DNA of 39,934 nucleotides, taken from Dimargaris cristalligena. Lineage: Eukaryota. The translations under genes were made by a program, and so were the position numbers. Every line of letters starts with the position of its first letter. Position 1 is the first letter of the stretch. Location of the stretch: NCBI GenBank assembly GCA_003614675.1, contig ML002345.1, positions 1 through 39,934 of the forward strand, in the 5' to 3' direction. A model generated the notes under the pieces. That model was not told the DNA's origin. It ran no database searches and worked only from the letters and a program-made list of their open reading frames with translations. Shown here piece after piece: positions 14,278-39,934 of this stretch.

Positions 14278-17200
14278 CCGATGGGTAAGGAATGGGAACA
14301 TGGCAGGAGAGACGAGACTGGCGAAATGGATGAAGTCTAGTCATTGAATCTCTGTGGCGGAGTCCCTCCCTGTCTCCCCCCTCCACGGAAAGAGACCTGT
14401 ATGCATGCCACGTAAGATAACGAGAGGTGTGTAGCGGTGGGCCCCGCTGCTATATTGATTCGAACCTGTGTGCGGAATGAAACCCGCATGGCGGAGACTA
14501 CGGAGAAAGAGAGAGGGAAGCAGAGCTGGTGATGGGCAGTAAAATGTTTGTTTAAGTCAGGGGTAGACTTGGGTAGGCCGCCGTTGATACCACTATGTCG
14601 ATTCGATTGATATCTCTCGTATGGCATGCAGACTGTGTGGAGTTTGGGACACACTCATCATTAAAACTGGTATTATTTTTAAACTTATAACCCGGCTGTG
14701 CAATGCGACGCTGACCGACTTGCCCGTCATTAGGGATTACCAAGTGGGCTGCTGAGCGTAATTCAGAGATGGCCCAAAGGAGGAACATTGACCGGGCTGT
14801 CCATTTTCGATCATTCAAGGGCTAGCAGAATCGGCAACGCCTCCACTGAATGTTCATATCGGGAAGAAGGACTATACAATGGGGCTGATCAGCTTTCCCT
14901 CCATTTCACATTCACCTCCCTAAAACTGCAATATATAGTATAATAATAATGGGCGATTATATGATCAAGTGCAACAGGGATTGACCAGGAGTATCGGCCG
15001 GACTATACCCATTCCCCCACCCTCTGATAAATTTCAGGTAATCTAAAATTTGGGCAACGTAAGCAAATTTGGGACAGGAGTAAGACACAGTGGCGATTAC
15101 TGTTTAGGGCATCTCGTGGGGGCCCAGTCCCTCACTGCCAAGAGTAATAGTGGAATTAATACGAAATGGGGGATGCATCATTCCCCACTTCTAAGCGAGA
15201 AGGAAATGATCACTGACGTTGGCATTGGCATTTGTCAGTGAACCCTAAACCTGGTTGTTTAGGTAGGCCAATCCAAGATTGCCCCCTCCCCCTCCCCCTC
15301 CAAAAAACAAAAAAATACAATTTTCGGTAAATAAACTATACGTTAATACAAAGTTGTCTACTAAGACCATTTTCCGGCCCAACCCCGGGAAACTATAATC
15401 CGGTATCCCATTGCCGGGTGCCGGTTTTCTGCCGAGCTCGATACGGAACATGTTTGCATGATCTGACTGTCTGTTTGACGAGGTTTTGGAAACCCCGGGA
15501 GATGATTCACAGCTATTATCGAGGGCTAATTATAGATCAGTAGAGAACATTAACCACTTCCCATTTCTAATCCACGACTGAAGCACACTACCACTATCCT
15601 TATCAATAATACCACCAAATGGAGTCCAGCATGAATGGGTTTTCGAACTCCCGAGCTGGGCCGGTGGCTTAATGGGGCATGGCTGTATATCATCCCTGTC
15701 AAATGGTCTTTGTATAAAGCTCGCCCTATAGCCATTGGCCCCACGAATATCCCTTTGAAATAACGAATATTGTTGTTGTGTCTAGGGCTATTTTAATGAC
15801 GCGGGCCGATTGGCCATCACTTGATTGATGTCCAACCTGACCTGTCAGTCGAGTGCCTCCCGAGATTGGTCAGCTCATAATGAGCCCTGGCACAAAAACC
15901 TGGCTTCTCCACAACAAAAAAAAAGGGGGGGAGGTAACTTCAAACCTAGTCTCCGCGCCAATGATTAGGAGGGCATCGCCTTTTGACTGTAAGTAAACCA
16001 CATGCTACTTTGAAAATGTCCCGATTTTTTATCATGTATATTCAAACCGGGGCATTTCATGTCAGTTGGGGGTTTTTTTTTGGTAAATATAATAATAGAC
16101 ATTTCCTATTGAAAGGAAGTTGGATGGCTTATCTATTGGATGCGGTTAATTGACGCAGTGGCTGTTTAGAAGCGGAAATGGAGCATTCCCGCTTACTTTC
16201 TCTCACTCCCTCTTCTGTTTTTTTTTCTCCGCCCGCGACCTCTGTTTGTGGTGCATCTATCCGTAAATAACAATAAACGACAACCGAGCGTGCTGTCTTA
16301 CCAATTACCGACATTGCCAGTCACCTACATCCCTCACAAGACCCCCCGCTCCCTCCCAGCTATGCGCCAATATACTTGTGGCTGGATTACTGAAGGGTAT
16401 GACGAGTGTTACCGTGTCGGCTCCCCTCGCCAGCGGAGCATGGGCGAACAGCGGGCGGCGGAATAGGTTTTACTATATAGATACATGGATTCCGAACATA
16501 CATATATAAATATAATATAAGTTCGTTATGTAAACCCCCTTATAGCTAAATATAAAGGAATTGCGGCGATGACTAATAATACACGGACGCCTGCTTGACG
16601 GTTTTTCTGTGTTTAAATCAACCGGGCCCTCGGTCGCAATAAATTGTCTAATTTCGTACTAAAGCGGTAATCGCCAGGGGGGTCAACTGAAGACCTGTGT
16701 AACGCGAATATTGACAGGCTTACGGATAATACAAAAAATAATAATAGTATATATATATATAATAGTAAAGATGGGGAGCGCTAAAGGTGTGCTGGGTGGG
16801 GAAGGTGGGAATTTATGGATCAAGATGAAGGGAAACAGTCCATACCTTCCCAAAAAGCAACGGAAACTGGGCTGGGAGCGTGTACAATAAAGTCCTATCC
16901 ATAGCGCAGGTACAACCGGTGGCGGACCTGCACTACTCTAGCTGACCGACGTCTCAAACCGGCCCACGGAAGTCACTGCGGTAGGTTTGAGACGCCAGTC
17001 AAAATACTTGGGTGCGATTTAGTCAAAATATAGCTTTACATTTGGAATACGTTACCAGTCCGATGCGGAGGAAATGCCAGCGCAATACGGGGTTTAATAA
17101 CAACAGCAAAAGAAAAACCGCTAATAATACAACATCATGTACGGGCCGTGGGTATGGAATTAGGGGGTTCATAAATAACCTCGGGAAAGCTGGGAACCCT

Positions 17201-19573
17201 ATAAAGAGTTCACCACTGCTAGATTGTGCATACCAAAAGCGAGGTATCCGTCCTTGTTTGCAACAATAAATGTGGGATTCCTAACCGATTTCCCGCTAGG
17301 GATATGGTTAAGGTCAAATTGGCAGTAACCGCCGGTTGGTACGCCCCGATTAAAGCCCAATATGTGTATATTGAGCATGTCCCCGCTTTTCTGGGAAAGG
17401 GCCGAGGATAATTCTCCAACGATGGGACGGATTGTGCCAAATCCTTCCCGGCCTGCTTTACAACCACCTCCTCTCCCCTTACCTCGCTAGCCCCGTTCGA
17501 AAGGTCTAGGTTTGGGGCGAGTTGGATGCTGGAAGGGACGCATCCGTAATCCTTAACCCATTAAATGGATACCATCCGCGGGTGCCCATAATAATAGAGA
17601 CCGGAAATGGTCACCGCGTTCTTCCAAAAAATACAACAATGGTCCGCTGGTTGGTACCAGAATCATATGTTCACTCCATATGGGTGAAATTCAAACCAGC
17701 TGTATAAGGTTTTACATAATACGTGTATGGGCGAATATATGTGAGAATAACTTTTGACCAGTAATATTGGCCTCATCCAATGGATTTTTCATGATACAGC
17801 CTAAATGAACTTCTCCCATATGGACCCAGGGAGAGAGAGCGAAAAAGAGGAAATTAAACAACATTGAGGGCAGGAGTAGATGGGCTGTATTCATTTTAAT
17901 TACTTAACACATGTATATATAATGGCGGTATTATTTTTGGTAGATTATAGTAATATGGGGGTGATTAGTTTTATAGGCTGGCCCTCTCTATAGTCTGTAC
18001 TAGGCACAGGACTTGTCGATGGGAGCATTGCTAGAGATCATAGGCGTAGAATGACAGGGGGAAGGGTATATGGTAGTGCAAGCGAACCACAGTGAGGCCA
18101 GTGTACAAGGCTGACGGGATTAGTGTGGAAGGCTTCGTGGTCAACCCACGATGGTGAAGGAAGCCCATCGTCCACCCCACACACTCTTTTTTACCATTAA
18201 TAGAGGGAGAGAGAGAGGGGTATTGGGTAGAGGAGATGTATGGGAGGAGGGGGGAGGGTTTCAAAGGGCAATGGCGTGGAGAGAGGGTGGCAATATGGCT
18301 GACTACCCAGGGTGCAAGGGGCAGAGGAGACCAAAAAGTGAGCCAGGCGAAACGAGGGGAAGGCGCATCAAGCGGCCTCAGCAGTGCAGTCCGTGGCCTA
18401 GCTCCATTTCTTTAAAAAAAATATAGAATATATACTATATATATATTCTATGTATATACATTATGTTTGGTGGCCTACAGTTGCGGCTCCCTGTAGATGT
18501 GTCTATCCACCATTTAAATGCTTCACAATCAGTGACAGGTGCGTTTCTGTTAGCTTATTTTCGATTCACTAAAATCAGCGGCCACCCCCAAAAGGCACTG
18601 AGCTAGAGCAGCCTCATTGGTTAGAACTGGCCGAGGATTCAGGGACAAACAGTGTGAGGCAACCCCCAAGAAAGAGCGGCGCGGCGTAGGCCATTATAAT
18701 AATAGTTCTTGGAGTATGAAAGTGGAGGAGAGAGGAGGAGTCTCTTGACCTTTACAACCCAAGCCGGTTTAGTTGGTGAGGGAGAGAGACTCTCAGTGTG
18801 TGGTTGAGAGTGTCGCTAAAGGAGAGCCAAATTGAGAGCCATGCCAGACCGGTCCAGAGTCCAGGAGAGCCGGAGCCAAAACCGGAGCGGGGTTCCATAT
18901 GGGCTCTGCCGACGCTCCTTTGTCTGGGTTAGCTCTATAGGTCGTGGATTAAACGAGAAGCTGGAACCAGCGTATGGCTTAAATGAAGCGTAAGACGAAT
19001 ATGAAGCAGGGGAAAGGGGAGCAAGCCATTATTCTATTTATTTATTTATTTTAAAAAAAGTAGGGCACCAAGACTGGGTCACAACGCCCAAGGCAAAGGC
19101 GCTAGCTAGCTGAGCATTAGGGTGGGACAGGCAAATGTGCGACAAGTGACCTGGCACACAAAGCTCAGGCTCCTGTGGTTTAGCATGGGCGGCCAGGACG
19201 CGGCGGTTAATAGTGGTAGTGGTTGTGGTGGTGAGCGGGAACGGGAAAGAGGGAAGGGAGAAGAGAACCCTCCCCACTGATACAGGAAGGGAGAGAGGGA
19301 GGAACGGTGGGTGGGTTGGGTGGGGGAAATGACAGACGAGATGGACCGAATGGAGCGGCCCCCCCTTCACTGACACTGTGGCCGGCATTGTCCGATCCAA
19401 ATATAAATATCGACCCCGGCCACCCCCAGTGAACCGTCGCTCATCCAGCAATGCAAGCAATCGCTCTTGGTTAATCCCAGACCCCTTCCTTCCCCTTTCA
19501 CTCGTCTCATCTCCCCCCTTTCCCTTTCCTAACGTCCGCTTCCGCTTTCCCGTGTACCACTTACTCACTCCCT

Positions 19574-19581
19574 TATAAATA
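19574..19581 (+). promoter_or_regulatory. Putative TATA box for the 78-aa microprotein gene
   Basis: TATAAATA lies ~230 nt upstream of the ATG at 19805, within a CT-rich tract. A second ATATAAATAT is at 19401-19410. Confidence 0.45.
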
Positions 19582-19804
19582 CCCTGGGTTGCCCCTCGCC
19601 GAATTGCCCTTTCTAACCTTACCACTTGTCGAGATCACCCTCTCACCCAGTCGTTCATTATCTCTTTCCTCGTCATTCCATTTTTTGCATTGTACTAGTC
19701 TAGTTCGTTTGCCGCTAGCATCCCAAATCCCTTCCTACCCTTGTAAAGCACACCCTTATTACACCAATCTCCCCCATTTGTCCATTTTAAATAATCATAG
19801 CACC

Positions 19805-20041
19805 ATGACGACCCCTCCTTTTGCCTTCGCCGACGCCTCCGACTACTACAACTCGCCCGCTTCCGAACAGCAGTACGGCTACTACAATAATGATGGCGAC
19901 TCTACCGACCGTTGTCAAAGCGGCTACTACCAATACAGCCAGGAAGCCACGCGTATGGCCTACAACGTCGCCGGCGGGTACGGTTATGGTCAGCGTTCGT
20001 GGCAGCCACTAGATACCATCTGCGAGGATTCGTCCGAGTAA
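19805..20041 (+). CDS. Hypothetical 78-aa Tyr/Ser/Gly-rich microprotein with C-terminal LxxIxE motif (LDTICEDSSE)
   Basis: CACC-ATG start, strong bias toward C-ending codons (tac, aac, gac, gcc, tcc), an upstream TATA and CT-rich leader, and a C-terminus shared with 35493-35756. Confidence 0.75.
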   Translation: MTTPPFAFADASDYYNSPASEQQYGYYNNDGDSTDRCQSGYYQYSQEATRMAYNVAGGYGYGQRSWQPLDTICEDSSE

Positions 20042-23000
20042 ACCTCCGCCGCGCGTCCATCCTCACAGTGTGGTCCTCCTGGCCACCTTTGCCTTAATTC
20101 TTGTATCAACTATAACCTCTTTCTCCATACTCCTTCTCCCCCAGTCGGCGCGAGTGTCCCGACCGACCCGAAAACGTGTTAAACGACACCCTCCCCATTC
20201 CCCTTATAGTACACCCACCGCTCGAATCCCTAACCCATGTACCCCGCTGGTTCTCCCCCCCAACCACTCTTCCCCCTTCTTTATTCCGCGCCCTCCTATT
20301 CCAATTTCATTTGGCCTCTCCCCATTCTCTCTCTCTCCCCTCTCGCAACCCTATTCCGTCCGTATATTTAGTGTAGAATCCTATGATAGCTCTCCCATTC
20401 TCTATATCTTATTCTTTTCCATTAGTTTATATTCCACTTCACCGTTCTAATGATTAGATTGTCTATTCCCCCCTCCCTTTTATGTTCTTTGCTGGACTTG
20501 TTCTTATATCCTTTTCCCTAACTCAATATTTTTTTTTGCTTATCCGCCTCCTGGCCGGCTCTTACTCCTTCCCACCTGGGGGCTTTCATTCTGTCTGCAA
20601 ATAACCATGCGGCCACGACTGCACTTAGCTCACTACATGTCTCCTCCTCCCCCTTTGGCTTCTCAGTCAACCCGGGAAGAGGGGAAGGGTATCCTTCTCC
20701 ATCTTAGCTGTGTTCACCTCAGTTTTTAGCGAGTTCATTCTCCACCCTAAAAAACACAGTTGTTTCAATTGTCTTGCCGTTTCCACCTCACTTCCCTCAC
20801 CCATCATTGTATACATCCACACCATCATCCATCATCCCTAATGACCCCTCCCCTTTCACTATCACTTTGGTCCTCTGAGACTCCCCCAACCTGCCCACTG
20901 GTTTCCCTGCTTTTTGACTTGGTTTCCTTTAACACTTCGAATCTTGGAATAAAAATCGATAGCTTTCGCGCCACTATTTAAAACCCACTGCGCACATAGT
21001 TAATGGGTGGTCGCTTGGAGATGTTAAACACAATAGTATATGGTACACAGTAGGTATTTAGTAGGTGATCAGTAAGCTGGAGTATGACTTTCCACCGCCA
21101 AGTTAGCAGAGGTGACAGTAGTTCGCCGGAGGAAGCATTACACTGTGCTCGGAAGAACTGATATAACTTTATTGTCTCTTACTGAGTTCCCTGAAAGAGC
21201 TACCTTGAACAGATTAAACTGAACTTTGCTGATCTCTTAACTTATTCCCCCGGCCTGTTTAAAGAGCGGGGCCGCTATAAGCCCCGTAGGAAGCCCTCAT
21301 TTATCTTTGGCGGATTGATAAGGGCTTACCAGTGTCTCCGTTCAATTAATTGGGATTTTACAGATAAAATCACACCCTACAGGACTTACTTTACCAATGT
21401 GCTCTAGGCCAGTTCTGGTCAACTGTATGTATTTAGTGATGAATTGAACTCAGCTGTCATTGCCATTCAGTTGCCCGGCCGCTGTCAACGCGTCGACATG
21501 ATTGCCTCGCCCCGGTCCATCTCTACCGTTTTCTACGATGTCAATATATCAATGTCAGTATAGTTAATTACACACTTGCGAAACGGATCCCCTGATTGTC
21601 TAGCGACACCTAACCATGCCAGGAGATGTGCACTTCTGGGGCTGGGCGACACTCCCATGGGGATTATCAGCTCTGGTAAGGAGTGTGTGTGGGGTAAGTC
21701 CAGCGCAACGCAGTTAGTTATAGTGAGCCTTCCAAGGTGCAATTATAAAAAGGCGGATCACTTTGGCAATGAAGCTTAAAGCCCTTTTAAGCGATTGTCT
21801 TAGGATGGCCACTCTTTCGACAGATATAGTGAGAGAGAGCGAGAGTGATGTTCGTCGGGGTTCCAAGAATGTTAGCATAATAAAGCGATTCGCCATCATT
21901 TACCGGCCCTGTATACCATTGTTGGGTTGCTCCGATCAGCGCTGAACACTCTATATATCATTATAAATAGGTGTAGAGCCACGGAAGGAAGCCACCTATA
22001 ATAGATGCTACTTGTAAGTGTAGTAGTTTGCGGAGGAATTCGCGGCACTATGACGCCAGTTTTGGTCCAAATTAATAGCATACTTATTGCCCACCCACCG
22101 TCCTCTTCCGATGCCTAGGCGCATTACTCAAAGGAATGGCTAATCCTTTAAAATTCAATCGGCTCACTTCACCATACTCGCCCCTGTACTTAGACAGTGT
22201 TGCTTTATCCATCCATCAGCCGCCCTATGGACAATATGGGAGAAGTTCATCCAAGCTGTATAACGAAAAATCCATTAGATTCGGCCAATATTACTAGTTA
22301 AAAATAAATTTCCCATATATTCTCCCATACACATATAATGCAAACCCTTATATAGCTGGGCTGAATTTCACCCATATAGATAGGAAGCTGGATAAGGGGC
22401 GATTACGGGAAGCATGCTTGTCGCCCCACTTATATTCCCCAATTTAGGCTAGATCACCAGAGCCACGTGAATTTGGCTTGGCTCCGTCGCCTTTAGCCGC
22501 GTCTGGGTCGACTATGCTAATATTATACAAGAATGGCATCCCTTCACTGCTGACAGTGTTCAGTGGAAGGTCAGGATAAACCTGCCGGATAATCTGTCAA
22601 CAATCGGTGAACTATACTATGCCATACTCATTTATTCATACGTATACCGCTAAGGAGGCCGGGAAAACCACGGCACAGAGCCAAGTAATATGCGCAATAC
22701 GCGTGTATATCTATCTACATATCCTTGCGAAGGTAAAATATTGAAGTATACTGCATTGGATAAATAAGGGGCTGCGTATTTTCATTCTTGAATATCCTCA
22801 TATGGATATATTTAGGCCCCAGAGGGTTAAGTAGTGGGTGATTGAATCATATTCGCTATTTTCAGTGGAAGGGGGTTAATTGGTACCTGTGAGAAATCAG
22901 GAAGAGGGTTCACGTTTCCCTCGGCATAGCAACTCCTTTTTCCTCCCTAAAAAAATCCACAATGGTGAGTAACCGCGCAGCGGCCCTTCTTCATCATCTC

Positions 23001-25686
23001 TGGCGAACAGACATATTTATTATTCCAGGACCGCCAGCCGGCCGGAATTTGCGGGTGAAACCAAAAATAAAATAGGCGAATCCTGGCATTATGCTCTATG
23101 AATAGCGGGCATCCGTACTATCTGAAAACGTCAACCAAATACCAATTCAAAAAACCGGCCTGGTCCGTGTTTACGATGTCCCAATAGGGCCATATCAGCG
23201 TGAACGTGGAAGGGCTGTATTTGGTAAAATTTCCGCTCGCCTACCACCTGACGCAAGCAATCCTTAATACCGCTGCGGCGGTGCTTAATGGCGGTGCGAT
23301 TGTGTAATGATGATCCGAATAATGCCCAAGAAATTGCAAAGGGTAAATCCCAAAACAATGATTTACGTTCCGGATGAAGAGGGCCATGCCACAAACTATA
23401 CCTGCCCATGGCGGGGTGCATGAGGAGGGGGGGAGGACCCCACGCTGAGATGGTGTATGCCACATAGTTCTGGTCCTCTTCCAACTTTGACACGCCAGTC
23501 AACCACGCAGCTTGCCAAATCAAGATGGTGCGGAAAGACGAGGTGGATGGGATAACCCCCGCTTGCCATTATGGCGTCTCAGCTCGTGGCAGATGAAGGC
23601 GTTATTTATGGGACGGTTATCTGGACATTTGGCTATGGTAATGCACGCCCCCTGCTCCTGCACTCCGCCATGAAACAGACTGCTGAAACACATGCGCGTT
23701 GTAGCAGGTTTAGCAACCTTTTATTGCATGGTCCCGCTGCAGTAATCGAGCCAAGGCGAGTTTTCATGATACTGGCCCATATGAAAGGATTTATGGGCTT
23801 GACCAAGTTAATTATTGAGCTATAGCGACTTATCGTAGAATGCATTCTCAATTATATTTCCTCCTAAGCCCCGACTCAATCTGTGTGAAGCTTCTCAATG
23901 GCCCGCGGTTTTCCTTTCAAATGATAACATCTCATACATACTCACTCCTCCAGACACGCTTTCACATATACTCTGGCCATTCAGCAGTGGTTGGTATTCC
24001 CATGAATATATCGATGAGGCATGTCGAGTGTCAAATATAACCCACATGTTTGCCCCGTATATTAGGTGTACTGAACGAAAAAGCAGGGGGTGATATCCCG
24101 AATTACAACCCCGGTCCCAGGTAGATATATGTACCCAGCTGCAGCCAACTATGGGCGCGGACCGTTAACCAGGGGATGATAAGGCGAGGAGGAGATGCAT
24201 CCTTAGGTTCCCAGCACCTTAAGCGGTATTTACTGTGAGCAGAGTAAAAAATAGACGAGTGTTCGGTCCAAGGTCGAACTGGGAAAAGGGATTTATAATT
24301 ATTCCATGACCATACCAATGCATAAATTACTCAGCCTTGTAATAGTCATCCGGTCCACGGTAGCGATGTACAGCTTATCGAGTTTCAGCTGCGGAGTAGT
24401 ATTTAAAAATAATATGTATCCATTATAGGGAGATAGCCAAGGAAGTTGGACTGAGGTTGGAAAAAAGGTGCATTAGGACTGCTCCCAGTATATTATAGAA
24501 GGCAGTATTCGGGGATACACCTGTATGAGTCGAGGGAATGGATGAAACATTACTGCAGCGTTAATACTCCTACTGAATACTAATCTAACCACGCAATTAT
24601 ATAACAAGATATAACAGATTAATATACCAATTCAGGTAACGAATGGCCCCTGGGTGGGATTGGAAATGGGAAGCATCCAGACTTTCAACTACAATTCAAG
24701 GTTAGATTCGGGATCCGACTGGGGCTCGGTTTCGTTCCAAATAGATAGGGGAACGAGGTTTCCTATTCAATTTTAAGTACTATTACTAACCATTCGAACA
24801 TCTAGTTTTCTGTAGTAGCGGATTCACATTGAGCGAGGCCAAATGTATACTAATATTGGTCGCTACGCTAAAAATACTTGGCCCTGTATTGAATAATCCC
24901 CACTCGTCCCCGAGCCCGTTTGGAATTACTGGTTTACAATTACACCAGGACTTGGTATTGCACATACAAGCAGTTGCAGGTTATCGTATGCCTACGGAAT
25001 AATAGGCTCTACAGTCAACTTGTTGGTTTGAAGAAGTAGTGTCGGTATTATTCACTATTGGTCATTCATAAAACCAGTCATGGACTACGTTTGAATCGTA
25101 TGTCCCTTCCACCGCCCACCATTTACTCTAAACTTAGGAGGAAATAATTTGCATCACTTTTGTTGCCGCTTCTTATCACCGGCTCCTTTATGCATCCACC
25201 CTGGCTAATACCAGCATTTTTAGGTCTATTCCAGCCCCAGACACGCGGAATACACTAGCCCGACCACCCTGAGTGCTATTACTGACACCCTCGCTTGGGT
25301 TACTGTTCCCCTGGTTGAAGCCACCCTGGTCCGATCTAGATAGGAGCGATGGACTCCATTACCTGTTCTGTTACCAGTCATTTTGGGATGGCAGCAATTG
25401 CCATTGTAATTACACTCTGAAAATTGGTTCCTCTTAGAACTGCCATCGCCCTATAAATAGGATGGCTATCCCGCTATTGAGCACGTTGGAAGCTGGATCT
25501 CTCCCAACTGCGTTCACGTTTCTACTTCTCCTAATCACTTGGCTACTCCATTCCTACTATCGATCATTCAGTCGTCATTCAATAAAGCCAAATGAGGAGA
25601 GACTCCTGATCACTTAGCGGCTTTTATCTCTTATTATGGTTTTCAGTTTTTTTTTCTCTTGCAGACTATTTAGAATCCGTTCCAAC

Positions 25687-25971
25687 ATGATTATACTGGT
25701 AGGATCTCTCGTCTATGAATGGTATCCCTCTTTCTTCTCTTTTTCATCACTTTTATGACCATATAATTTCTGATTATTTTGTTACTAGTCGGTAAGCCAT
25801 TATTCTACTTCTTTCTTAATCTATGTATCTCTTCTTTAGTTAAATATTACGCCGGTGGTGGTAAGTCTTCACACTAACCGAACTCTTTTACTTTCACAGG
25901 CATCTCTGATCACCCCGTACCACTTGCTCCTCAATATGTATACATGTCCCAGTCTTCGTAGGCCAATTTAG
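25687..25971 (+). other. Candidate micro-exon transcript (three short GT-AG introns; 3-nt and 21-nt internal exons)
   Basis: Donor/acceptor pairs are 25699-25788 (GTAGGA..CTGAT..TAG), 25792-25839 (GTAAGC..TAG) and 25861-25899 (GTAAGT..CTAAC..CAG). CTATAAATAG lies upstream at 25451-25460. The reading frame is uncertain. Confidence 0.4.
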
Positions 25972-26086
25972 ATGCGATAATATAGCCAAATAGCCTTCAT
26001 TTGCCTACTAAATTAGTCGTTTTTCGCCCGTTTATACCAAAATTATAAACCATATTACCTTTGACAATTATATCTGAACATGAACG

Positions 26087-26158
26087 TCTTCAATAGTATA
26101 GTGGTAAGTATCTCCGCCTGTCACGCGGAAGACCAGGGTTCAATTCCCTGTTGGAGAG
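26087..26158 (+). tRNA. tRNA-Asp (anticodon GTC), intronless
   Basis: Acceptor stem TCTTCAA/TTGGAGA, D arm TAGTATAGTGGTAAGTA, anticodon arm TCCGC-CTGTCAC-GCGGA, T loop GTTCAATTC, and a downstream TTTTT Pol III terminator. Confidence 0.97.
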
Positions 26159-29100
26159 TCATCTTTTTGTAGTTTTTTGTCATTGAGACTACCAACTATT
26201 GGATTAAATAGTTAGCGCTTGGTGTTTTGCCAGTGGTGTTGGTTTAAAATCATCTAGACAAGTTCAACCAGGCTGTATAACAAAAAAATACGTTGAATGA
26301 GGCAAGTACTACACTGGTTAGAAATTATTATCCTGCATATTTCTCCATGCACGTATCATATAAGACCTTATACAGCCAGGTCGAATTTCACTCATATGAA
26401 ATCGGAATAGATGAGGGTTCGCAAGTGTATGTAGTTTTGGTAAAAAGATACGCGAGCTAGTAGTCAAATAGATTTCTCAGCGGTCTCGAGCTAATAAATA
26501 AATAAATATACATATATATATGGATATTCTTCCCCCAAACCACTGTTCACTATTTCGAGTCCACTATATAGTCCGCTATGTTTTAGGGTTTCTTTTAGGT
26601 AGCGATTGCGTCCGTCCCCCGATTCAGGTGAAACGACAGGGTGGGCTGTCTCAATTGATGGTGAACCCCCTGGCCGATTGAACTACTTTACTTCCCAATG
26701 AGACTCCGGTTATATTCTTATTGCTTTATACATCGCTTAGCGCTATAGTAATTATATCCATAGGTATAGAGCCGTGAACTAGCTTATTTTGATAGAAAAA
26801 ACCTCGATTGTTGGGAAATCTAATCAAATACATAAGAAACCCCAGACACCCGCAAACCACTCACTGGCGAATGTAGCTAAAACTAGCTAACATAACTTAA
26901 CAGCAACGTATCAAACGTACGTTATTGTAACTTCATTAGGCCGGCGCTTATAGGTGAGAGGTAAATATTATATAGCCTGGATGAGATTGGCAGCGCTTAA
27001 CATTCAGTCTTTAATTTTATCAGAAAATAAAATATATGATATTATTAACACTACTTGGGAATATATCTAGGTTGGGAAAGCCGCTAAGTACAGGGGGGCC
27101 GGTTGCCGTGACCTCCACTTATACTACGGCGATATACACCGTTCGCACTCTTGACTCATGGGGTCTATTGCTTCTACATCTGTATACCTCACTGAGGCTA
27201 TTTATTTTTTACGAATTGCGACGGTATTTAATAGTCTTGTTGATGACAAGAGGTGAGCAAGTGGTTTCCAGTTAACATCTGGGTAGTTCTTTTGTACTGA
27301 TTCTCATCCCTATCTTCGTACATTAGCTGGTACAGTAGCACAACAAAATACAATCACATCCATTGGGGTGCGCGGGAAAAGGGCTCTCCTCACGTTTGGG
27401 ATGTCCGACAATTGACTGAAATGAAGAGATGGAAGGGTATTTGGCATGTGACGAGCGCGACTGGTATCATTGATACAGTAGATTGAAGTGCATCACGGTG
27501 ATGCTGTAGAGCCCATAGTTGACGAGCTTCTGTATTTTTTAGCGGTCTTTTACAAAAACTCCACATTGGAATAAATCCAGCATGGGCGGCATCGATAACA
27601 AGTAAGTCGTGCGTGGGTACTTTGTATATTACTGGGGGAGGTAGTGCCTTGGAATACATGTCTACATTTATTTTAACATACGGCCAACCTTAATGGGTAT
27701 TACAACCTTTCCCCCCTTCGCAGGCCACTACGGTTACGGAAACGGCATACCCAGGGGCAGTCGCCGACACTATTATTGGGATAAAGGTGGAAGCTACGGT
27801 ACTCTTCAACAACATCGTGGATTTGGAACATCGGAACACCCGGTTATCGTGATGGCTTGGGGTAAATACCAGAAGAAGAATGAGCACAAAAACACTACTC
27901 CCAGCCCAATTCCCATTTTGTCATCAGGCCATCCGCTCCTCCCACCCACCCTCCCTCCTCTTATTATTTTCTTTATTTTTTAGACCGTGGGCGTGGGACT
28001 CACCACTAGTCCCTGGAAATGGGGCCAAAAGGGTCAGATTACTCGGGTCCGTCGAGTTTATTATCAGGAGTACCGGTGATCCCAAAGTAATTTGAGGTCG
28101 AATCCAGTTCGTTATTGGGTTCGGAATTTGGTATAGCTCAGTTCTCGGTCGACGCAAAGAATGATCCATGGACCCAAACACCGGTATTTTACTGCCAAGA
28201 AATCAGCGACAACAGAAAGCAGTTTAATACAGATTAGTACGACGCGCTCGATTTCCATACCTCATTAAGGTTGATTCAATTATTCCGTGATAAAAGGAGT
28301 ATATAAGAACCTTTCCTAGCCTGAATTGACCGTCCGCATCAACAAATGCAGTAATCCCTGGTCACATCAGCCGGGAGGCTTAACTCAAAAGTTGCATGCT
28401 GGGGTTAGGTGTGGGAACCGGAGAGGCAACAACTCAAAACAGTAGGGTCGGCTTCCAAATTCTGAACGGTTTTTAAGGTGTTGCATGTAGAATATTGGAA
28501 AATATCGGTTCCAGTAATCAGTCGGGACGTATGGTACATATTGGAACAACATTCAAAGAGCGATGAGCTACTGACTATTAATCGGCCATTAAGCGAGACA
28601 CACGGATCATTTTAAAAAAATACCCAAAGCGGGCACCAATGATATTATAGAGTTCGACCAATAAACCTCGCACCCCTACTGTGTAAGCCTCCTAAGTGGT
28701 GTTTTTCGTTATATTAGTTATATATGGAGTGCTGCTATGGTTCGACGCTTACAAATTAAGAATACTTAACCAAAATCAACCGCATTGGGTGACGGTATAT
28801 TGAAGTGGTAAAGCCGATGGCCATAGCCGTTTACAATAGACGTGTAAATGGGGCCAGTTCCCAACCTAGATAATGAGGCGTGGATTTCGATGTTATAATG
28901 TCCACAGCCCGGATACTTCTACTGTGCCAATTCGGTTAAACAAGGGTGTAACATTGCTTAGTCGACCAGTCTAAAAGTGCTTTAGCATCCTGCCTATTGC
29001 ATTCATCCGGGTGTGGTGAGAATACTTGGGAACTAATAAGCTAAAGAAGATCCTCTGGGCTATTTCTCCGATCCCAAGTATACGTGTTGGCGGTTGATTT

Positions 29101-32100
29101 AGTAAATGGGAAGTGGGAAGGGTAGCGCGAATCCCGTCAGCATACGTTAAAATAATCATCACCAGAGGGGTGGGCTGTAGTGGAGCGAATCCGCTTCTTT
29201 AACCCTGACATCATTACACATGGAACTAATGATGCCGGGCACCTGCGATCGAAGTTTACAATGGCAAAGACCTTCATCAACGTCAGAGGCATAGGCCGAT
29301 TCGACTAAATAGGAGAGGGGATGGTGGTGGTATTTCTGGATTGTCGCCTAGGGAAGGGAACACTAGATCAAGTCGGCGGATACATCTCAATATGGGCATT
29401 TAGTAAACCTTTTGAGTCAAGGTGTACATCCAAAAACCTTCGGGTATTCACCGGGCCCTTGTCCTTCCTTGGGACTTCCGCTCCAGCTCTTCCCCACAGT
29501 CTGACTGTTGCACCTCCGGCCTAAGTCTGAAACCAATTTACGTAGGTTTAGATAAGAAAAGGAGGGATCGGTACACCGTATTCGTTGCACTTATTCAATA
29601 ATGCCCTCATCGCTTTCCCGTACAGATTGTCGGAATTCCGCGATTGGGATAGAGGAATTGGCCTGGTGTTCCCGAAGAGGAGTAGTATAAGAGAGTACAA
29701 AAAAAACAAGCAATAGTACGCGTCCCCATATTGGTACGCAGACGAGTCCCTAAACAGATAACATTGAATAAAGATAATGGTGGCCGCTAAATCATTTTTC
29801 CTGCCCACTAGACTGCGTTACCAAAGACCGACTCCCCAAGAAAAGGGGGGTGCTCAAATTAAGTAAACTTAAAGTGCCTGGTCTGATAGGATATATACAA
29901 GCCCAATCATAATAAGGACAGGGGCAACTTCGGTTGCCTATTTGGGCACTCGGCCAGGTCTTCTACTAAGGCTCCGATTGGACTGATCAACGACCGATAA
30001 GCAAGTCTAGCTCCGACTGGAGCCGCACAGGCGCGTGTGTACATGCGAAATTGAACAGGCTCTAGAGATAACCGGCGTAGGGAAATTTGATAATTAGTAG
30101 AACTGATAACACTCTTTCCAGGCGACCTCGGCCTGGTCTAGCTAATCGGCGGTTTATTAGGTGCGAAATTGCCGCCGGAATCGCCGGTGACAATATCCTA
30201 TTGGTGTTTTCCGATAGGGAGTCCGGATTGTTACTATGGCCATCAACGTACGACTTCGGACATAAAGTCCATCCTACTAATACGTAAAAAAATAATACCA
30301 ACTGGCATTCTATTATTCTATAAAACTGTAATGGGCAGTACCACCCAATATAGACTAGTTGTTGAGGTGACGTGCTGCATCACAGTAACCCTGCTGCCCA
30401 AACAATGCCTTGAATTTCTGATGGTTTCGAAAGAAAATACAGCCATCCTACTGGGGAGAATATCGATTCCATATTATCTAAAAATATAGCCTAGAGTGAC
30501 CAGACTTGTGGCTACCAAGTGCCCACTATTGGCCCGGCAGCTCTTTAATAAATCTAGTCGAATTAGTAATCGGTGATGGCTATCGTTTAAATTCGGAATA
30601 TATTATGAGTCTCGCACCCTATTAGTCTATAGGAGCGGCTGCAATAGCCTCCGCTGAAAAACCACAGTATCATTGGCCCGATTATATAGCATGTATTCCA
30701 TTTGGCCGATAAATTAGCGCCATATCTAACCGCGAATTGAAATTGCTGCCCCCACACCCTACATTTTGCCATGTGATAGTAGGCAAAGTGGGGCCATAAT
30801 TACAGTGGGGTAATGGAGCCCAGAAGCAATACAATTCAATGGTATTCAGAATATAGACGGCGAATAACTAGGGAATGGGAATATCACATTTTGTCAGGCA
30901 CACCTATCTACCCGCTAACCCACCCTGACTCGAAGGTTAATAGTCAATTGCCACAGCCTAAGATGCAGGACCCGATGCACAGCTGACATGGCCCGGCTGA
31001 GGAGACGCAGTAGAACACTGCTATTGAGAAAATTGGACAAGTCCAATAACGGCTCTCATCATCAAAACTGCGCAGACTGATTGAGGCCAGGGGTGGGTGG
31101 ACAGGGAGGGGGGCCACTGTACCCCCAGCCGGTTCGATTTCTCCCGAACTTGTAGCGAAGTCCTCCCCCACCCGTTTGGAACACTTGGCCTCATGCGGTT
31201 CACAGCGGCGCATGTTCATGGAAAATGGGCGAGGGGAAAGATGGGGGAAAATATTATGGTAAACAGGAGGAGAGGGGAAGAAGCCACAACAGCCCGTTAA
31301 CCTCCCGGTATAATTTCGTACAGATATATAGGTGGGTGGGGAGGGCTGAGCGGGGCGACAAGACTAGGTAGCCGTAAGTTCCCCCTGCTCGTCTGCACAC
31401 GAAATGGGCGACCACCTAATTGCCAAGCCGTGCACATTGTCGATTGACTTCACTCGCCTGCTGTATGGGGAGTGTGCATGTGCCGGTCTTGTCGAAGCTA
31501 ATGCATAAATGGGACGCGGCGGATTGGCTTGATCACATCCGGCTATTGCTGATATTGTCATACCCATTCCCGACCCGATACACATGCCCAACGAAATGGG
31601 ACGGATAAAGGGTGGTAGAATAGATTAGGAAAGGGAAAGGCCTGGCCCTGTTCATTAAGAAGACATGGTCGTGCGGTCTCTGTACCCGAGCGGCTGCGGT
31701 CGCGGGGTTGCACCAACGGGTCAGAGGTTGACCAGGCGGTGCCGTACCACACGGGTTTTGATTAAAATAAGATTTCGCAGGCCCCAGTAGTTTATTTCTG
31801 CGAGCGTTATTTGCAGGGTTATATCGACACCCTCTCTTTCTTTCGGGGCACGTCTCTTTTCAGTAATAGGGGGACGTACAAGAAGAGTACAAGAAAGGGG
31901 ATAGATAGAGAGGGAGAGGGGGTCAGGAAGGCCTCTGTGCTACTCGATAATGGAGCAGATAGCGATGTTGCACACGTTTGACAGCCCCCAAAAGAAGGCT
32001 TTCCATCTAATGTTGGATGGGCCGGTGGATTGTTTTTCCTCCCTATCTTTTACTATTACCCGAACTACCCGCATAGCAAGGTCAAATGGAGACCGCCGTC

Positions 32101-35100
32101 CCGCCCAACTAAATCCAGTTGCAAAATAGCCGACCGTAATTATAGGCCTAATGGGGGGACCGTTTTAATTTAGCCGTGTAATAAAGTAATAAAAGACAAA
32201 ATTGGGTCGCATCTATTTTTTTTGAGCCGAAACAAGGGGGTGGCAGCTCAGCCAGCCACGGTAAAGATTGGGGCCAACATCTCGTACCTAACTGGCCGCG
32301 AGGAGAGAGCGCTGAATAATAGACTTGGTAGGTTATAGGGTGCAAGGTCTGTGGGTGATACTAGACATGCCTTATACCATTGGCCAGCTCCTTTCAAGGC
32401 ACCGCCGATGGGCCTATCCGCGAAGTACCAGGGCCATGTAATTCTTTTAAATAGAAAATAGTAGAAATCAGCTGAAGGAAAAAAAGGCCAAAAGGGGCGG
32501 GTGACTTATATTACTTTCTTCCATTTCTCTCCAAATGGAGCCGCCCCATTGGAGCCCTGAGGAGAAGCAGTTATTTTTGAATTTAGCGGGTGCTATCGGA
32601 TGACTTATCTATTTGCTTAAGCGCCGTAGATCGGTTCCGAAAGTGTCCCCTTGCCAAAGAAAACGGCAAGAGGAGAAATAATAGTATACTATATCTTTTT
32701 GGTATTTATCTATATACTACCTCTTCCCCCCCCCCTGTCGAACTTACCCACGGCCATGAACCATATTACCCTTCTTAGCCCTCCCACCAATATATGTCGA
32801 CGCCGAGGCTCCAAATTTGACCAGGGAACACAGACCGACGTAAGGGAGAGAGGGGAGAGAGGGCTAAGGGAAATCTCCTGAAGGGAAGGTTACACCTTAA
32901 TTATCGGAGGGACCGGGTGTTTTTCCCTTCTTTCCACATGCTGGCTTGAGCCCTTTGATTTCTTCTAATCAATTACAGGAAACGCCGTACCACGCGCTAG
33001 TCGGGTGAATAGCAGGAATGCTAGTCACTATAGCAGCCCTATTACTATTACTATAATTAATATTATGTATGTTTTTTTTTAGATATAACCTCCACACCCT
33101 ACGCCTTCTCCTATAGGTCAGGCCAAATATAATCCAATATAGACGATGGGTCAATAATGATTGTCGTTGATTTTACATTTCGTCACACCTCCGGTAAGAA
33201 GGCCTCCTCCATAGCTGGGCTTCGTAATATCGGTAACCAGTCGTCGTCACGCTCAGGGTTGGTTCCCCAATATTGACGTAGTCAGATCTCACTCTTTTTA
33301 CCCCTCCTGTTGCGCATTTTCATACATCGGGATGTCGTCGTACACGCTAGATCCCTCCCCCTTGTCGTCCCTTATGATCAAAGCGGCTCCGCTATATCAA
33401 AATGAATAGCGCAGTACCCAATACATGCTTTATCTTATCGCTAGCTTATACGATTGAAGAAGCGAGGCGGGTGGAAAGACGATATTGTGTGGCACAATAG
33501 TTCCTGAAGTCACTCGCTGACAATATTCAACGAAGAAGTTCTGACAAGTATGAAACAACTGAATAGGAATGGGAGGGCTCAAACCGAAGGTAAGGCAGTC
33601 TACCAAAACCGATATTATTATATCTTTTTAAAATAGTAATATATCTTAATACTCTAGGGTATATAGTAATGGTTGGTACAGAAGGGATATACTTGGTGGC
33701 ACTTGAAACTCACCCCCTCTACTCTCATTAACCAACTACCTCTCACCCGAACCCCGATGCACGTTCATCATCCATTGTGCCCAAGCGTTTGAGGCTTCCG
33801 CATGGTCACTTTATCTTTCAGCAGCATAGCTGGGTTAGGGACTTTAGATATGCATGGGGCAGCAGGAAAAGGCTAATATATTAAACACCGCAGGATAAAC
33901 GGGATGCGATTGTTTAACCTATATCGGATGCCGTGACGCGGGAATGAAAATCTAAGGGTAAATAATGAATCGGAGACCTCTGATAACACAAATCTAGCTA
34001 GTACTAAGACTAAGGGTTGATGATGGCGTATATTCCTTGGACTTTATTTTCATCTAATAGTGTTGGTATAGATAGTAGCCGTAGGAGTAGCTGAGCAAAA
34101 ATGACCCAGTTGGGTGGGAACCATTCTCAGTGTGAAGATTAGACCCTATTGGAGGGCACGGCAGCCAAGCAAAAGGGATGATACTATTTCCACATATCCC
34201 CTATCCTTCCCTTCTTTAGTCAAGGGGGGGGGGTTATAGACGCAAGGCGAGAAGAGGGCTGGGGGAGGAGAGAGTCTTACCTGTGCGTGTGACACAGCTG
34301 CCTCATTCAACCAGCCCCCCTTCTCCTCCCGCTTTTCTTATAGTTTAGTGTTTTTATCGCTCCGGCTAAGGGGTACACAGCGGTCGTCCTCTCTCCCTAG
34401 TTTGGGCCGTGGGGAGCCGATAGGAAAGCCAGCAATGGTTAAATGAAGAGCTCTGCTTTCTCGCGTGCCATTGGACCAACGGAGGATCCCAGGTGGGTGG
34501 GGATGGTCCCGTTAGGCAAGGGAAAGGGTGTGGTGAATGGGGAAGTCACGACACCACCGTCATGGGCCGGTTGGTTATTGGTAGCCCTGGGCACGATGGT
34601 GGGTCCTATAAATAGGCCGGCTCCTGCACCTCCTCCAAGGCCTTGACATGCTTCATTGAACAACATCCCCCCTCCGCACACCACCTTTCTATCTATCTCC
34701 GACAAGACCCCCCCCCCCCAATTCCCCCTTAGCACTCTATACTACTCCCTGACTCACTTGACCGCCTGAGTCGTATAATAGTAGTTGTTCCATCTATAAC
34801 ACTCTGATTAAATCAGCACTGAGCCTGATTTTGCAACCCTCGCTGTTCTCTTCAATCGCCACACCCTCACCGCCGCGCTCGCTCGACTGCACCTGTCCGG
34901 CTTGTCCCTGACTTTGATTGACGCTGAGTTTGTCTCCCCGTTCTACCGGTGTCCCATTTGTTTGCCTTATCTCCCAACCCGCGCCCTTCGCCACGCCGCC
35001 TTTTTCATCTAGTGCCAGCGAGCTGTACTTCGGATTGTATTCGTGCTACTCGGCCGTGGCTACTACTGTTGCTGCTTCCCATCCGTTCCTTCTGCACACC

Positions 35101-35345
35101 TGTGTACACCCGAATCATCCCCCCCTTGCTCATCCCTATTCCTTCACTGCGTTTAGTGTGCTAGTATTATCACTCGCGCGCTGTATCTTGCCCCTTTTCT
35201 CCTACTGTATACATCGGAGCTCTACTTTTTTCAATCCGGACGGTGTTTCAAGTGGAACCTCCCTTGACCACATCCCACCTCCCCGCATTGAGTGGACTAT
35301 TCATTGACGAAACTTTGGCTGTTCCTCCACCCACGAACTCGTCCA

Positions 35346-35353
35346 TATAAATA
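35346..35353 (+). promoter_or_regulatory. Putative TATA box for the 87-aa microprotein gene
   Basis: TATAAATA lies ~145 nt upstream of the ATG at 35493. Confidence 0.5.
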
Positions 35354-35492
35354 TTAGTCCAGCTGGCCTATCCCTGATTTCCAGCCGCACTTCAATTTAT
35401 ATAGCTATTACTACTTCTATTAATTGGTATTATTACATTACCCTCTCACCTGCGCCGCACCCTGTCTCTCCTGACCCTCGTTCCTATACACC

Positions 35493-35756
35493 ATGGCGTT
35501 CTATACACCCAAACCCATTTCCACCATCCCCCGCTTCCTGGACCAGTCGTCCCCCTTCTTCCAGCCCTTCACCACCACCAGCGACGACACTGCCTCGTAC
35601 TTTAATGGCGGCGACTCCCACCCGTACGCCTACGTTACCAGCCCCCCGCTTCCGCTAGCGGCCTCCGGATATATCGGTTTTAACCACCACGCCGGTTCCA
35701 TTTCGTCAGGCTCCCAAAACCGACTGGAAACCATCCAAGAGGACCCAGAGGAGTAA
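35493..35756 (+). CDS. Hypothetical 87-aa Ser/Pro/aromatic-rich microprotein with C-terminal LxxIxE motif (LETIQEDPEE)
   Basis: CACC-ATG-G start, bias toward C-ending codons, an upstream TATA, a long CT-rich 3' region, and a C-terminus shared with 19805-20041. Confidence 0.78.
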   Translation: MAFYTPKPISTIPRFLDQSSPFFQPFTTTSDDTASYFNGGDSHPYAYVTSPPLPLAASGYIGFNHHAGSISSGSQNRLETIQEDPEE

Positions 35757-38700
35757 CCACTCCCTTTCCCCCCCAACTCACTGCTCTAAGAGAGCCCGCG
35801 AGGGTACCCCTCCTTCATGCTATCCGAGGGCCAGATGTGCTTCATACTACCACCTCCTTCGTAGTAACGGTTTATTTTTGCAGGGCCGGATTTTGTTCGA
35901 CCTTCATTCCCTACGACCAGGGAAGACGCCTCTCACCGACGCCGGCGTCCGATCTCTCCCCCCCTCTCTATCATCCCCCCGTCCATTTAATAATAGTTTG
36001 AAAATTGGACCATATTTGTATTTTTCCTCCTCCTCTCTTTTCTCCCAACCCAATCTGCCCTCTTCTTTACCATTGCTCTATCAAAACCCACCCTAGACTG
36101 TCAAACCGCCTAAAAATTTGGACGGAGTAAGTGATGGCAGCATGGCCTTCCATACTCAGTATAACCACCACCCCACCTTCCTCTCCATCTATACGGATAA
36201 TACCCACTTTGTTTCATTATTTTTATACTAGTTAGCTTATGCCCCTGCTTCAATTCATTTAGTACACCTTTTACCACCCTCTTTTGCTCTCTCGCTCTGT
36301 CTCCCTTTTCAACTGACTCTCATTCCTTCATTGTATATTTAGAAATATCACTTTATCTCATCCATTCACTCTCCCATATCTGCATCCGGTTTGGCTGTGG
36401 AATTCACCCACCCATACACACACGGCACCTCCTCTTCTTCCGCCCCCCTCCCCTTTATAAAATCAATGCACCGTGCTACTCTCCCTAACACAAGTCCGGT
36501 ATTTTTCCGCCTGCCGGTTGGTTTAGCTTGGGTCGCGCATATTGCACATCACCACCACCTTATCCGCTTTGCACTCAATAAAATTGTCCAGTTGAACATC
36601 TATATCACCTCCGGACATCCTGTGCCCCCCTACACACACATGTACATATATATCCTACATACATGATGTACTTTTTGGTCTGCGGGGAACGCTAGGAAAT
36701 TTCCTCCCAAAATTGGAACTTAACTCCGTTACATACCCGACCCTGGGGCCATGTCATCCTGTTAAATTTAGGTACCACCAGCATTAGATTAGTTTCTGTG
36801 TGGTTTTTTTTTGGGGGGGGGGGAGAGGATTGGGGCTGGTTGGTGGAAAGATTCGGGCCTTCATTGCGCGGACGTAATGAAACAATGGGTAAAATGGGAC
36901 TCAGGGGATATTCCGTTGTTGTAAAAGGTAACCCCCCTTATATTTATCCACCAACCCCATTTGGCCTTGGTGCTTCATCAACTTACTTGCCCAGGGAGAA
37001 TAGTGCCACCCTTCACAGGTTCGAAAACTCGGCTAATCCTGTAATTGGAAGCAATGTTTTTAATGTGCGAAGGCAGGGGGGGGGTGGAGAGGGGCTGATC
37101 CCGTCTATTGGGTAAACAGATAGCAGACAACGTACTGCCTCTTGGCCCAATAAATCAGTTGTAAATGTACAGTTCTATTCTTTACAATTAAACCTCTTCC
37201 GACACGAATATTGTAAGCAACAGCCTTACTTGGTTTGGCCAATTATCCGGCTAATCTATAGCACTATTCAAATCCGGGACTGTTCAGCCATCTTCAAGTA
37301 TAAGTAACTAAATGTTGGAAATGTCCCGGTGTTGCTAGCTAGCTACCTTCACAGCCCCCACTCCTTTAAGCTTTAAATTCAGGTCCAGGCGTGCCATTTG
37401 TGCTCAGCGACCATGGACTTGCGGGAAACGTATCCCTCTCAAGGAGAGCCGGGCGAACGTAGAACTTCCACTCACTCCCACCCTTGCTAATTGTATCTTG
37501 TTTATGCTGTGCCCTACTCACCGGATATTTCCTTATTACTGAATGTGAAGGAAAAAAAGAGATGGCTAGCATCCCTTCACTTTTTCCCGCATGGCGTACC
37601 GGAGCCCAAATTAATATGACCAAATAGGGGGAATAGAATGAGGGAGATGGGAGGGGGCGGCTAAAACTTCTGAAATACAATGAGATTTGTTAAAAATATT
37701 TTAAAAAAATTGTCGGGCGACGGCTAATCCGATAAAATCCTAGTTTCCATACACGCCTACCCACAATCACACTCACGCACAGCCACGCGGCTGGAAGTCG
37801 GTGGAATGTCGTACTGCGAATATCGAAGGTAGGCACATCTTGAGGTTGTTGACTGAATATTTATCAGTGAAACAAAATGTGATTTCGGAAACGGTCGTTG
37901 ATGACCCGTTTATCCAATTCCCTACTGCTTTGCTGATACTCCCGACTCACAGGAAACCCCTTCCCCCTCTCCCCTCTTAAACCCAATGATAAATTTATCA
38001 TTTGGCCCCCTACTGCATCGCTTCCATTTATCTGGGTTAATTTAGACTAATTTGAACCTACCGACCGTAAGGACCAGCGGGATTCCCTAACGGATTATTT
38101 AATCCACCTTGGGTTCACTTTACCCTTAATTCCCGCCCAATATTGAAATGATTAATCCGGATCTAACTATAAGCCAGTAGTATATACACACTTTAGCCTG
38201 TATTTCAGAATGTGAAATATATTGCCGATACGTGGCCAAGTACCTGAATGAAAGTTATTGTCCTGGGAGGCTCTCCTCTCCCCTATCTTACCTCCCCCTG
38301 GCAGGCTATCTCACCCGTATCCACACACTCGCATAACCCCTCTCATTCCCAGACCATGGTGGTAATACAATTCAAATACACGACCCTTACCATGACAGAC
38401 CAGCTGATGCAACGACTCGCTGATTTAGTTGGTTCTAGTGATTTTACTAGTATATATACATATATTCATACACCGGGTATGTGTCTTCCACCCCCAACTT
38501 CCCCCTCCCCCCCCAAAAAAAAAGAAAAACAGATAGCGTGCGGCAAGGATTGCCCGAGGGGACACAATATGAGAGAATAAAGAAGAGTATAGTCGGCTGA
38601 ACGCAACTTAACGTCAAGTGACTCTCTTCCCCATTCTCATATACATTCGCTGACTGTACGTTAGGTCGGCGGTAATATAGTCAGCAGGTGGGTAAATTAT

Positions 38701-39791: not shown

Positions 39792-39934
39792 ATCTTATTG
39801 TTGTTGTGGTGTGGCAGAGTGACTAATATAATAATAGGCGAGAATGCCTTATTATCAAAAGATATAGTAAAATCGGACTCAAGATAACTGTAGGCAAAAC
39901 TGCCGGTACAGTTCAGAAGAATGAAAAAAGAGTG

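Follow-up and report, generated by a model that had tools for sequence, protein, structure and literature searches.

Two candidate microprotein genes in a gene-poor stretch of Dimargaris cristalligena DNA share a C-terminal tail resembling PP2A-B56 docking motifs

Protein phosphatase 2A (PP2A) holoenzymes containing a B56 subunit pick their clients through one pocket that reads the short motif LxxIxE; this pocket is blocked in research by artificial LxxIxE peptides, and its known cellular binders of the CIP2A/PME-1 type are large folded proteins (PMC10970375; here and below, sources are cited for those of their passages that concern the motif). The motif takes the form [LMFI]xx[ILV]xE, with Leu preferred at the first position (P1), Ile preferred at P4 and an invariant Glu at P6, and binding is enhanced by Asp, Glu or phosphorylated residues at P2, P7, P8 and P9 (PMC10970375). 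The BubR1 peptide KKLSPIIEDSREATH binds B56gamma with a dissociation constant (Kd) of 2.8 uM, its Leu, Ile and Glu occupying pockets and each being essential; a phosphate at P2 or P8 makes the complex 4- to 11-fold tighter, acidic residues there raise affinity too, and the authors propose that any LxxIxE within a flexible region may bind B56 (PMC4930772). The sequence LPTIHEEEEE binds without needing phosphorylation (Kd 80 nM) and has been used to inhibit B56 competitively (PMC11954910, PMC7327492). Yeast Rts1 uses the same pocket and motif (bioRxiv 10.1101/2020.05.30.124925, PMC12958826), and the 12 contact residues are fully conserved between Rts1 and human B56gamma (PMC12958826). Here we describe a stretch of 39,934 nucleotides (nt) from the fungus Dimargaris cristalligena (GCA_003614675.1, contig ML002345.1, positions 1 to 39,934, hereafter the window) in which two small open reading frames (ORFs), ORF1 and ORF2, encode proteins (P0001 and P0002, respectively) that end in a motif of this type. 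A preliminary description of this DNA had identified LxxIxE as the motif bound by B56/Rts1-type subunits and strengthened by acidic residues, which agrees with PMC10970375, PMC4930772 and the Rts1 papers.

Reading the sequence confirmed the coordinates, lengths and C-termini first given for the two plus-strand ORFs: ORF1 ends in QPLDTICEDSSE and ORF2 in NRLETIQEDPEE, each followed by the stop codon (Table 1). Coding status was judged with a codon model trained on 814 codons from five Pfam-verified exons against a non-coding trinucleotide background. Among the 70 ATG-initiated ORFs of at least 60 amino acids (aa), the full codon score placed ORF1 first and ORF2 fourth, ranks 2 and 3 being training genes; with amino-acid composition factored out, the synonymous-only score placed them first and second (0.299 and 0.233), and the remaining top-scoring ORFs were the window’s real genes. 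The 44 other ORFs beyond 9.5 kb had a mean synonymous score of -0.198 (standard deviation (sd) 0.116, maximum 0.01) and a GC content at third codon positions (GC3) of 0.479 +/- 0.058, compared with GC3 values of 0.705 for ORF1 and 0.747 for ORF2, which sets the two ORFs about 3.7–4.6 sd away from the others on these two measures. The codon score was positive solely in the frame of each ORF, rising at the ATG and returning to background past the TAA, and the flanks are equally pyrimidine-rich yet carried no coding score. When all 301 ATG-ORFs of at least 25 aa were compared, ORF1 and ORF2 scored 29.7 and 28.3 and the next ORF beyond 9.5 kb scored 8.4; a maximal-segment scan of the same region gave 37.3 and 32.2 for the two, followed by a segment at 23.7. 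Because of the codon scores, the GC3 values and the frame-bounded signal, both ORFs are very probably translated genes and the sole coding-like ORFs of a 30-kb gene-poor stretch. Both appear complete: the ORF2 ATG has an in-frame stop 18 nt before it with no AG acceptor in between, and the ORF1 frame is open for 330 nt upstream of its ATG (188 codons in total) but scores as background there.

Table 1. Positions in the window of the two microprotein genes, their tails and other features
Feature	Position	Strand	Remarks
Microprotein gene 1 (ORF1, P0001)	19805..20041	+	78 aa, intronless
Microprotein gene 2 (ORF2, P0002)	35493..35756	+	87 aa, intronless
Decamer LDTICEDSSE, LxxIxE-type	20009..20038	+	ORF1 end, TAA at 20039-20041; P1-P10: L D T I C E D S S E
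Decamer LETIQEDPEE, LxxIxE-type	35724..35753	+	ORF2 end, TAA at 35754-35756; P1-P10: L E T I Q E D P E E
TATA-like ATATAAATAT	19401..19410	+	404 nt 5' of ATG 1, at sharp purine-to-pyrimidine switch
TATA-like ATATAAATAT	35345..35354	+	148 nt 5' of ATG 2
TATAAATA, second TATA-like element near gene 1	19574-19581		
ATATAAATAT, third exact copy	16504-16513	+	
Pyrimidine-rich block around gene 1	19400..21000	+	62-74% C+T
Pyrimidine-rich block around gene 2	34600..36700	+	about 56-71% C+T
tRNA-Asp	26087-26158	+	
tRNA-Glu	39719-39792	-	
Repeat of ~150 nt, first copy	17675-17826	+	three copies, 77-83% alike
Repeat of ~150 nt, second copy	22229-22380	-	
Repeat of ~150 nt, third copy	26313-26398	-	

Translated in all six frames, the window contains the pattern L[DE]TI.E[DE] at two places and no others, both times ten codons before a TAA, so that the motif does lie at the same distance from the stop in both ORFs, as had been claimed; the looser L.TI.E occurs four times. 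The two decamers are identical at six of their ten positions, and the conserved Leu (CTA/CTG) and the conserved Asp (GAT/GAC) are encoded by different synonymous codons in the two genes. These synonymous differences indicate that the identity was kept at the level of the peptide and is not a recent DNA copy, and the pattern points to selection on the tail peptide rather than on the DNA. Set against the published rules, LDTICE and LETIQE both fit the core [LMFI]xx[ILV]xE and both match the Rts1 regular expression given in the cited part of bioRxiv 10.1101/2020.05.30.124925. The positions at which acidic or phosphorylated residues add affinity hold Asp at P2 and P7, Ser at P8 and P9 and Glu at P10 in ORF1, and Glu at P2, Asp at P7 and Glu at P9 and P10 in ORF2. 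Both tails carry each preferred B56 determinant (rules as stated in PMC10970375), and since P2 is already Asp or Glu in both, no kinase should be needed. ORF2 additionally has an Arg at P0, directly before P1, where BubR1 carries Lys668. Placement at a free C-terminus makes accessibility of the motif likely.

Both proteins are acidic (isoelectric points of 4.05 for ORF1 and 4.64 for ORF2) and Tyr/Gly-rich. Ser, Gly, Pro, Thr, Gln and Asn make up 46–49% of each, with 12–14 aromatic residues apiece, ORF1 being rich in aromatic plus S/G/P/T/Q/N residues and ORF2 in S/P/T/G plus aromatic residues, and Ser/Thr-Pro sites lie close to the N-terminus in both. Their composition is typical of disorder, itself a weak proxy, and single-sequence AlphaFold2 models, likewise a weak proxy, contain no stable elements (mean predicted local distance difference test scores of 44.5 and 56.9, respectively). 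Neither protein has an N-terminal hydrophobic stretch, and neither matches a Pfam family at E-values up to 10.

Size, strand, gene structure, composition and tail are common to the two genes. The preliminary description also held that the rest of each protein is weakly similar, which did not hold up: BLASTP of P0001 against P0002 gives E = 0.43, and once the last ten residues are removed the shuffle p-value is 0.33 for local and 0.045 for semi-global alignment. Because the body alignments are non-significant, the Y[YF]N.GDS and SGY blocks seen in the MAFFT alignment are not above chance. In this one pair, the decamer is kept (p = 1e-5 against random decamers drawn from both proteins’ own composition) while the bodies have diverged. 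Nor does the flanking DNA stand out, with 16 shared 9-mers compared with a null mean of 9.1 and a 95th percentile of 17 for random pairs of window segments, and conserved promoter or untranslated-region (UTR) blocks between the genes did not exceed the k-mer null for 9- to 10-mers. The description of the two as diverged paralogs of a family is retained in part: the tail is shared, paralogy of the bodies is not statistically shown and further members were not found. The tail may be all that survives of an old tandem duplication, or it may have been gained by two microproteins; under either origin it would be the functional element.

Relatives were sought in several sequence collections. A word-indexed search of 5.8 billion proteins matched each ORF to itself only, a longer search with P0001 gave 12 candidates with none at E <= 1, and an exhaustive phmmer search of 1.84 billion representatives, made with P0002 only, returned the protein itself plus P0003. 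The latter was rejected as a relative: it is 5185 aa long and built of near-identical tandem repeats of 280 aa, every one of them 25% identical to the query, and its score is a summation artefact. A metagenome scan with the two-protein alignment yielded 309 pattern stretches, none confirmed by tblastn (its patterns covered the N-terminal half rather than the tail), and a degenerate back-translated scan for the tail yielded 70 loci, about the number expected by chance on a rough estimate. No locus among the 70 carried the upstream blocks or a small ORF of similar kind, and some of the loci end in TGG, which the pattern allowed. The DNA contig collections scanned comprised metagenomes, prokaryote genomes and viruses; fungal genome assemblies were not among them. 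In the ESM Atlas, P0001 had no usable match and the best match of P0002 (0.75, an Ascomycota cluster) fell below the level of a lead. A PDB sequence search gave no match for P0001, and homology to BubR1 was detected for neither protein. The match of P0002 to the diatom iota-carbonic anhydrase (PDB 7c5x, E = 0.0013) arose from three summed repeats with no single stretch passing and was judged to be chance; residues 24–49 of P0002 (35562-35639) do resemble, in the form PF...T..[DE][DE]..SYF.GGD....YV, a motif repeated three times in that protein. A search for a B56 sequence by way of PF01603 found this family in 0 of 14 control genomes. The missing relatives are weak evidence of absence: by our own estimate, a match to a protein of about 80 aa becomes significant among 1.84 billion sequences only from roughly 45% identity upward, and small ORFs are often left unannotated.

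The surroundings of the two start codons were also compared. Both ORFs begin in the CACC-ATG context attributed to them, though the word CACCATG itself is not enriched (6 found, 4.9 expected, 33 of 100 shuffles reaching 6); three of the six copies open ORFs of 78–171 aa, namely ORF1, ORF2 and a minus-strand ORF at 3750-4265, and the other three open ORFs of 2–7 aa. The shared upstream element ATATAAATAT was found where it had been reported, plus in a third copy, and these three occurrences compare with 0.16 expected (0 of 100 shuffles reach three). A third family member downstream of the extra copy was considered and rejected, there being no coding-like ORF in the following 1.2 kb. The long CT-rich flanks are real, as judged by the C+T content of the plus strand: the blocks extend for 1.6–2.1 kb, each with one microprotein ORF inside, and we infer that they are transcription units, that of gene 1 having long UTRs. 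Directly before the first block, positions 19100-19400 are purine-rich (34% pyrimidine on the plus strand), and the content changes to 69–73% pyrimidine from the TATA-like box onward. This switch could mark a divergent promoter; against that, the 116-aa ORF beside it (19038-19388, minus strand) is without a coding signature. The TATA-type promoters, together with a codon bias above that of the neighboring housekeeping genes, suggest that both are under strong regulation and highly expressed, a suggestion that draws on general knowledge of fungal promoters.

The best overall reading of these observations, which we put forward tentatively, is that the tails dock on B56. In this scheme two intronless genes with TATA-type promoters would encode acidic, intrinsically disordered microproteins in which the extreme C-terminal decamer L-[DE]-T-I-x-E-D-x-x-E-COOH is the only element held constant between the two. 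The decamer would serve the B56 (Rts1-type) subunit of PP2A as an LxxIxE docking motif, close to optimal and independent of phosphorylation: Leu P1, Ile P4 and Glu P6 would insert into the conserved B56 groove between HEAT repeats 3 and 4, and the acidic P2 and P7–P10 plus the free carboxylate would add affinity. Since nothing else is conserved, dose-dependent occupation of the pocket is the most likely role on this reading; once the genes are induced, the microproteins would act as competitors or decoys, and other LxxIxE clients would be dephosphorylated less. Instead of this, they may bring PP2A-B56 to Ser/Thr-Pro sites of their own or to associates of their aromatic-rich bodies. The gene-like coding signature, the shared tail and its fit to the published rules are observed; translation, binding and the inhibitor-versus-adaptor role of the microproteins are what we infer, and the functional proposal is read from a sequence pattern in a single genome.

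Several points count against docking on B56. The minimal pattern L..I.E occurs 20 times in the window’s six-frame translation, and hits to patterns of short motifs frequently turn out to be spurious. A basic patch, which precedes the motif on its N-terminal side in some strong B56 clients, is absent from both proteins, where only single Arg residues are present (R64 in ORF1, R77 in ORF2); the basic motif in B56 clients is the subject of PMC7108865, which, in the part cited, has no bearing on the acidic tail. The confidence of single-sequence AlphaFold2 models is a weak stand-in for disorder, and the codon-model training set is small and comes from the same window. Common descent is not proven because the bodies are not significantly similar, and with no orthologue or third member found, conservation of the motif is read from one pair.

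The rival reading that fares best, possible in our view though somewhat doubtful, accepts both genes as real and has the tail serve a partner other than B56, whether as a CK2-phosphorylated tail, as a degron or stability element, or as the ligand of an undescribed reader. The coding evidence is the same for this reading as for docking on B56, a CK2-type T..E site is present in both tails (T71 in ORF1, T80 in ORF2), and many conserved short motifs have readers that are not known. What tells against it is that the tail combines all the B56 preferences set out in the cited part of PMC10970375 at once and closely resembles validated binders (PMC4930772, PMC11954910), while the other motif checked, an Atg8-type WxxL, was dropped as a shared element, being present in ORF1 only.

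It is improbable, by comparison, that the ORFs are chance, untranslated frames in pyrimidine-rich non-coding transcripts or promoter-like DNA, with the tail a remnant of duplicated DNA. With 49 ATG-ORFs of at least 70 aa in the window, length alone means nothing; C/T-rich DNA is poor in stop codons, as the 188 open codons of the ORF1 frame illustrate, and neither the phmmer search with P0002 nor the word search found a homologue. The synonymous score and GC3 nevertheless separate both ORFs from the 44 others, and the signal keeps to one frame and to the interval from ATG to TAA, outside which equally pyrimidine-rich flanks score nothing; flanks at the level of chance and synonymous differences within the tail also make a recent DNA duplication unlikely. 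That the ORFs belong to larger genes, as terminal exons or fragments, or encode peptides that are later processed (such as fungal ribosomally synthesized and post-translationally modified peptides (RiPPs) with tyrosine-rich cores), would suit the Tyr/Gly-rich proteins and the open frame upstream of ORF1, but is very improbable given background coding scores 5' of both ATGs, the in-frame stop without an intervening AG acceptor before ORF2, the lack of a signal-peptide-like N-terminus or KR-flanked repeats, and surroundings in which no neighboring gene scored: of 41 long frames beyond 9.5 kb, the 33 scanned gave no Pfam match, and no other segment was coding-like.

Ordinary genes are found only in the first 9 kb of the window, which holds an FKBP exon, a YEATS exon, a FYVE plus Rabenosyn-Rab-binding gene and a TB2/DP1/HVA22 gene. 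The Pfam scan covered 48 of the 64 stop-to-stop frames of at least 90 aa, and five of the 48 had a family; beyond 9.5 kb none of the 33 long frames scanned had one, nor did the two ORF frames, which were scanned as P0001 and P0002. Positions 9500-39934 thus comprise some 30 kb without a Pfam-recognizable frame among those scanned or another coding-like ORF, unusually gene-poor compared with the dense first 9 kb, and two tRNA genes are the only other recognized features there. A plant origin of the DNA, to which the best PDB match of the FKBP exon (wheat FKBP73) might point, was rejected, since that score sums three FKBP domains of which the best single one reaches 65.9 bits, below the roughly 90 bits of the FKBP12 matches. 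In the FYVE/Rabenosyn-like gene an in-frame TAA at 6159-6161 splits the same-frame coding segments 5808-6158 and 6162-6809, the latter with the Rab-binding domain; this stop could lie within a very short intron or be a sign of a disrupted gene. The minus-strand ORF at 3750-4265 that opens with CACCATG encodes a 171-aa membrane-protein-like sequence with a Cys-rich N-terminal hydrophobic segment and an acidic/aromatic tail, and has gene-like codon scores and no Pfam family. Finally, the ~150-nt repeat carries terminal inverted repeats of about 17–18 nt (CCATATGGG.GAA.TTC) and because of these looks like a miniature inverted-repeat transposable element; two of its copies, inverted and 4.4 kb apart, bracket gene 1.

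A bolder form of docking on B56, which we consider unlikely but worth stating, is that the microproteins are natural, genetically encoded, phosphorylation-independent competitive inhibitors of the B56 pocket, a fungal B56 counterpart of ENSA/Igo, in which only the docking tail is selected and the disordered body, rich in aromatic residues, is free to evolve or brings the complex to condensates. LxxIxE clients, substrate-mimicking B56 binders and small disordered PP2A-B55 inhibitors are already known; the literature searched contained no natural microprotein in which an optimal LxxIxE tail is the one conserved element, and no occurrence of four peptide strings from the two ORFs. If true, the cell could use inducible TATA promoters to adjust, by microprotein dosage, the global access of clients to PP2A-B56, a natural microprotein with an optimal, kinase-independent tail would show that cells also use pocket competition for regulation, and fungal biologists would have a simple means of probing the function of Rts1-type phosphatase. 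This case further suggests that small orphan genes can be recognized in a gene desert through a codon signature and a single conserved short motif.

How, then, do the two proteins compare with described systems? Dikaritin-type RiPP precursors have a signal peptide, repeated cores flanked by Kex2 (KR) sites and adjoining tailoring genes. Such a precursor was considered and set aside, there being no hydrophobic N-terminus, KR site or internal repeat in either protein, and among the frames scanned no Pfam-recognizable neighbor lies within about 10 kb on either side of the two ORFs. The endosulfines (ENSA/ARPP19/Igo1-2) are likewise small, disordered and dedicated to the regulation of one PP2A holoenzyme, and have a core FDSGDY with a phosphorylatable Ser. 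They differ in targeting B55 and in needing Greatwall phosphorylation of that Ser; the YFNGGDS of ORF2 only faintly recalls the core and ORF1 has YYNNDGDS. Membership of the endosulfines was rejected, there being no Pfam match at E up to 10 and a Gly at the Ser position of ORF2.

In the cellular proteins CIP2A and PME-1 (short linear motif of PME-1, VEGIIEEE), an LxxIxE-like stretch occupies the B56 pocket and restrains the holoenzyme (cited passages of PMC10970375); they are large folded proteins with extra contacts and activities, whereas the microproteins have no detectable domain. The BubR1 KARD (KKLSPIIEDSREATH; LSPIIEDSRE) shares six positions with the ORF1 tail, L-x-x-I-x-E-D-S-x-E, but there the motif is internal to a large checkpoint protein and strengthened by phosphorylation, and here it forms the extreme C-terminus of proteins of 78–87 aa. 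With engineered or viral high-affinity LxxIxE peptides, such as LIE1 (LPTIHEEEEE) and the 4xLxxIxE inhibitor, the ORF tails have in common L-x-T-I-x-E-[DE] and a following acidic run. LIE1 and 4xLxxIxE are artificial and built on a viral motif, whereas the two ORFs are natural chromosomal genes whose products have 68–77 further residues, and the ORF tails are less acidic after P6 (D..E and D.EE, compared with EEEE in LIE1). LIE1 blocks the B56 pocket competitively (PMC11954910, PMC7327492, in the passages cited), which is the mechanism that we propose for the microproteins.

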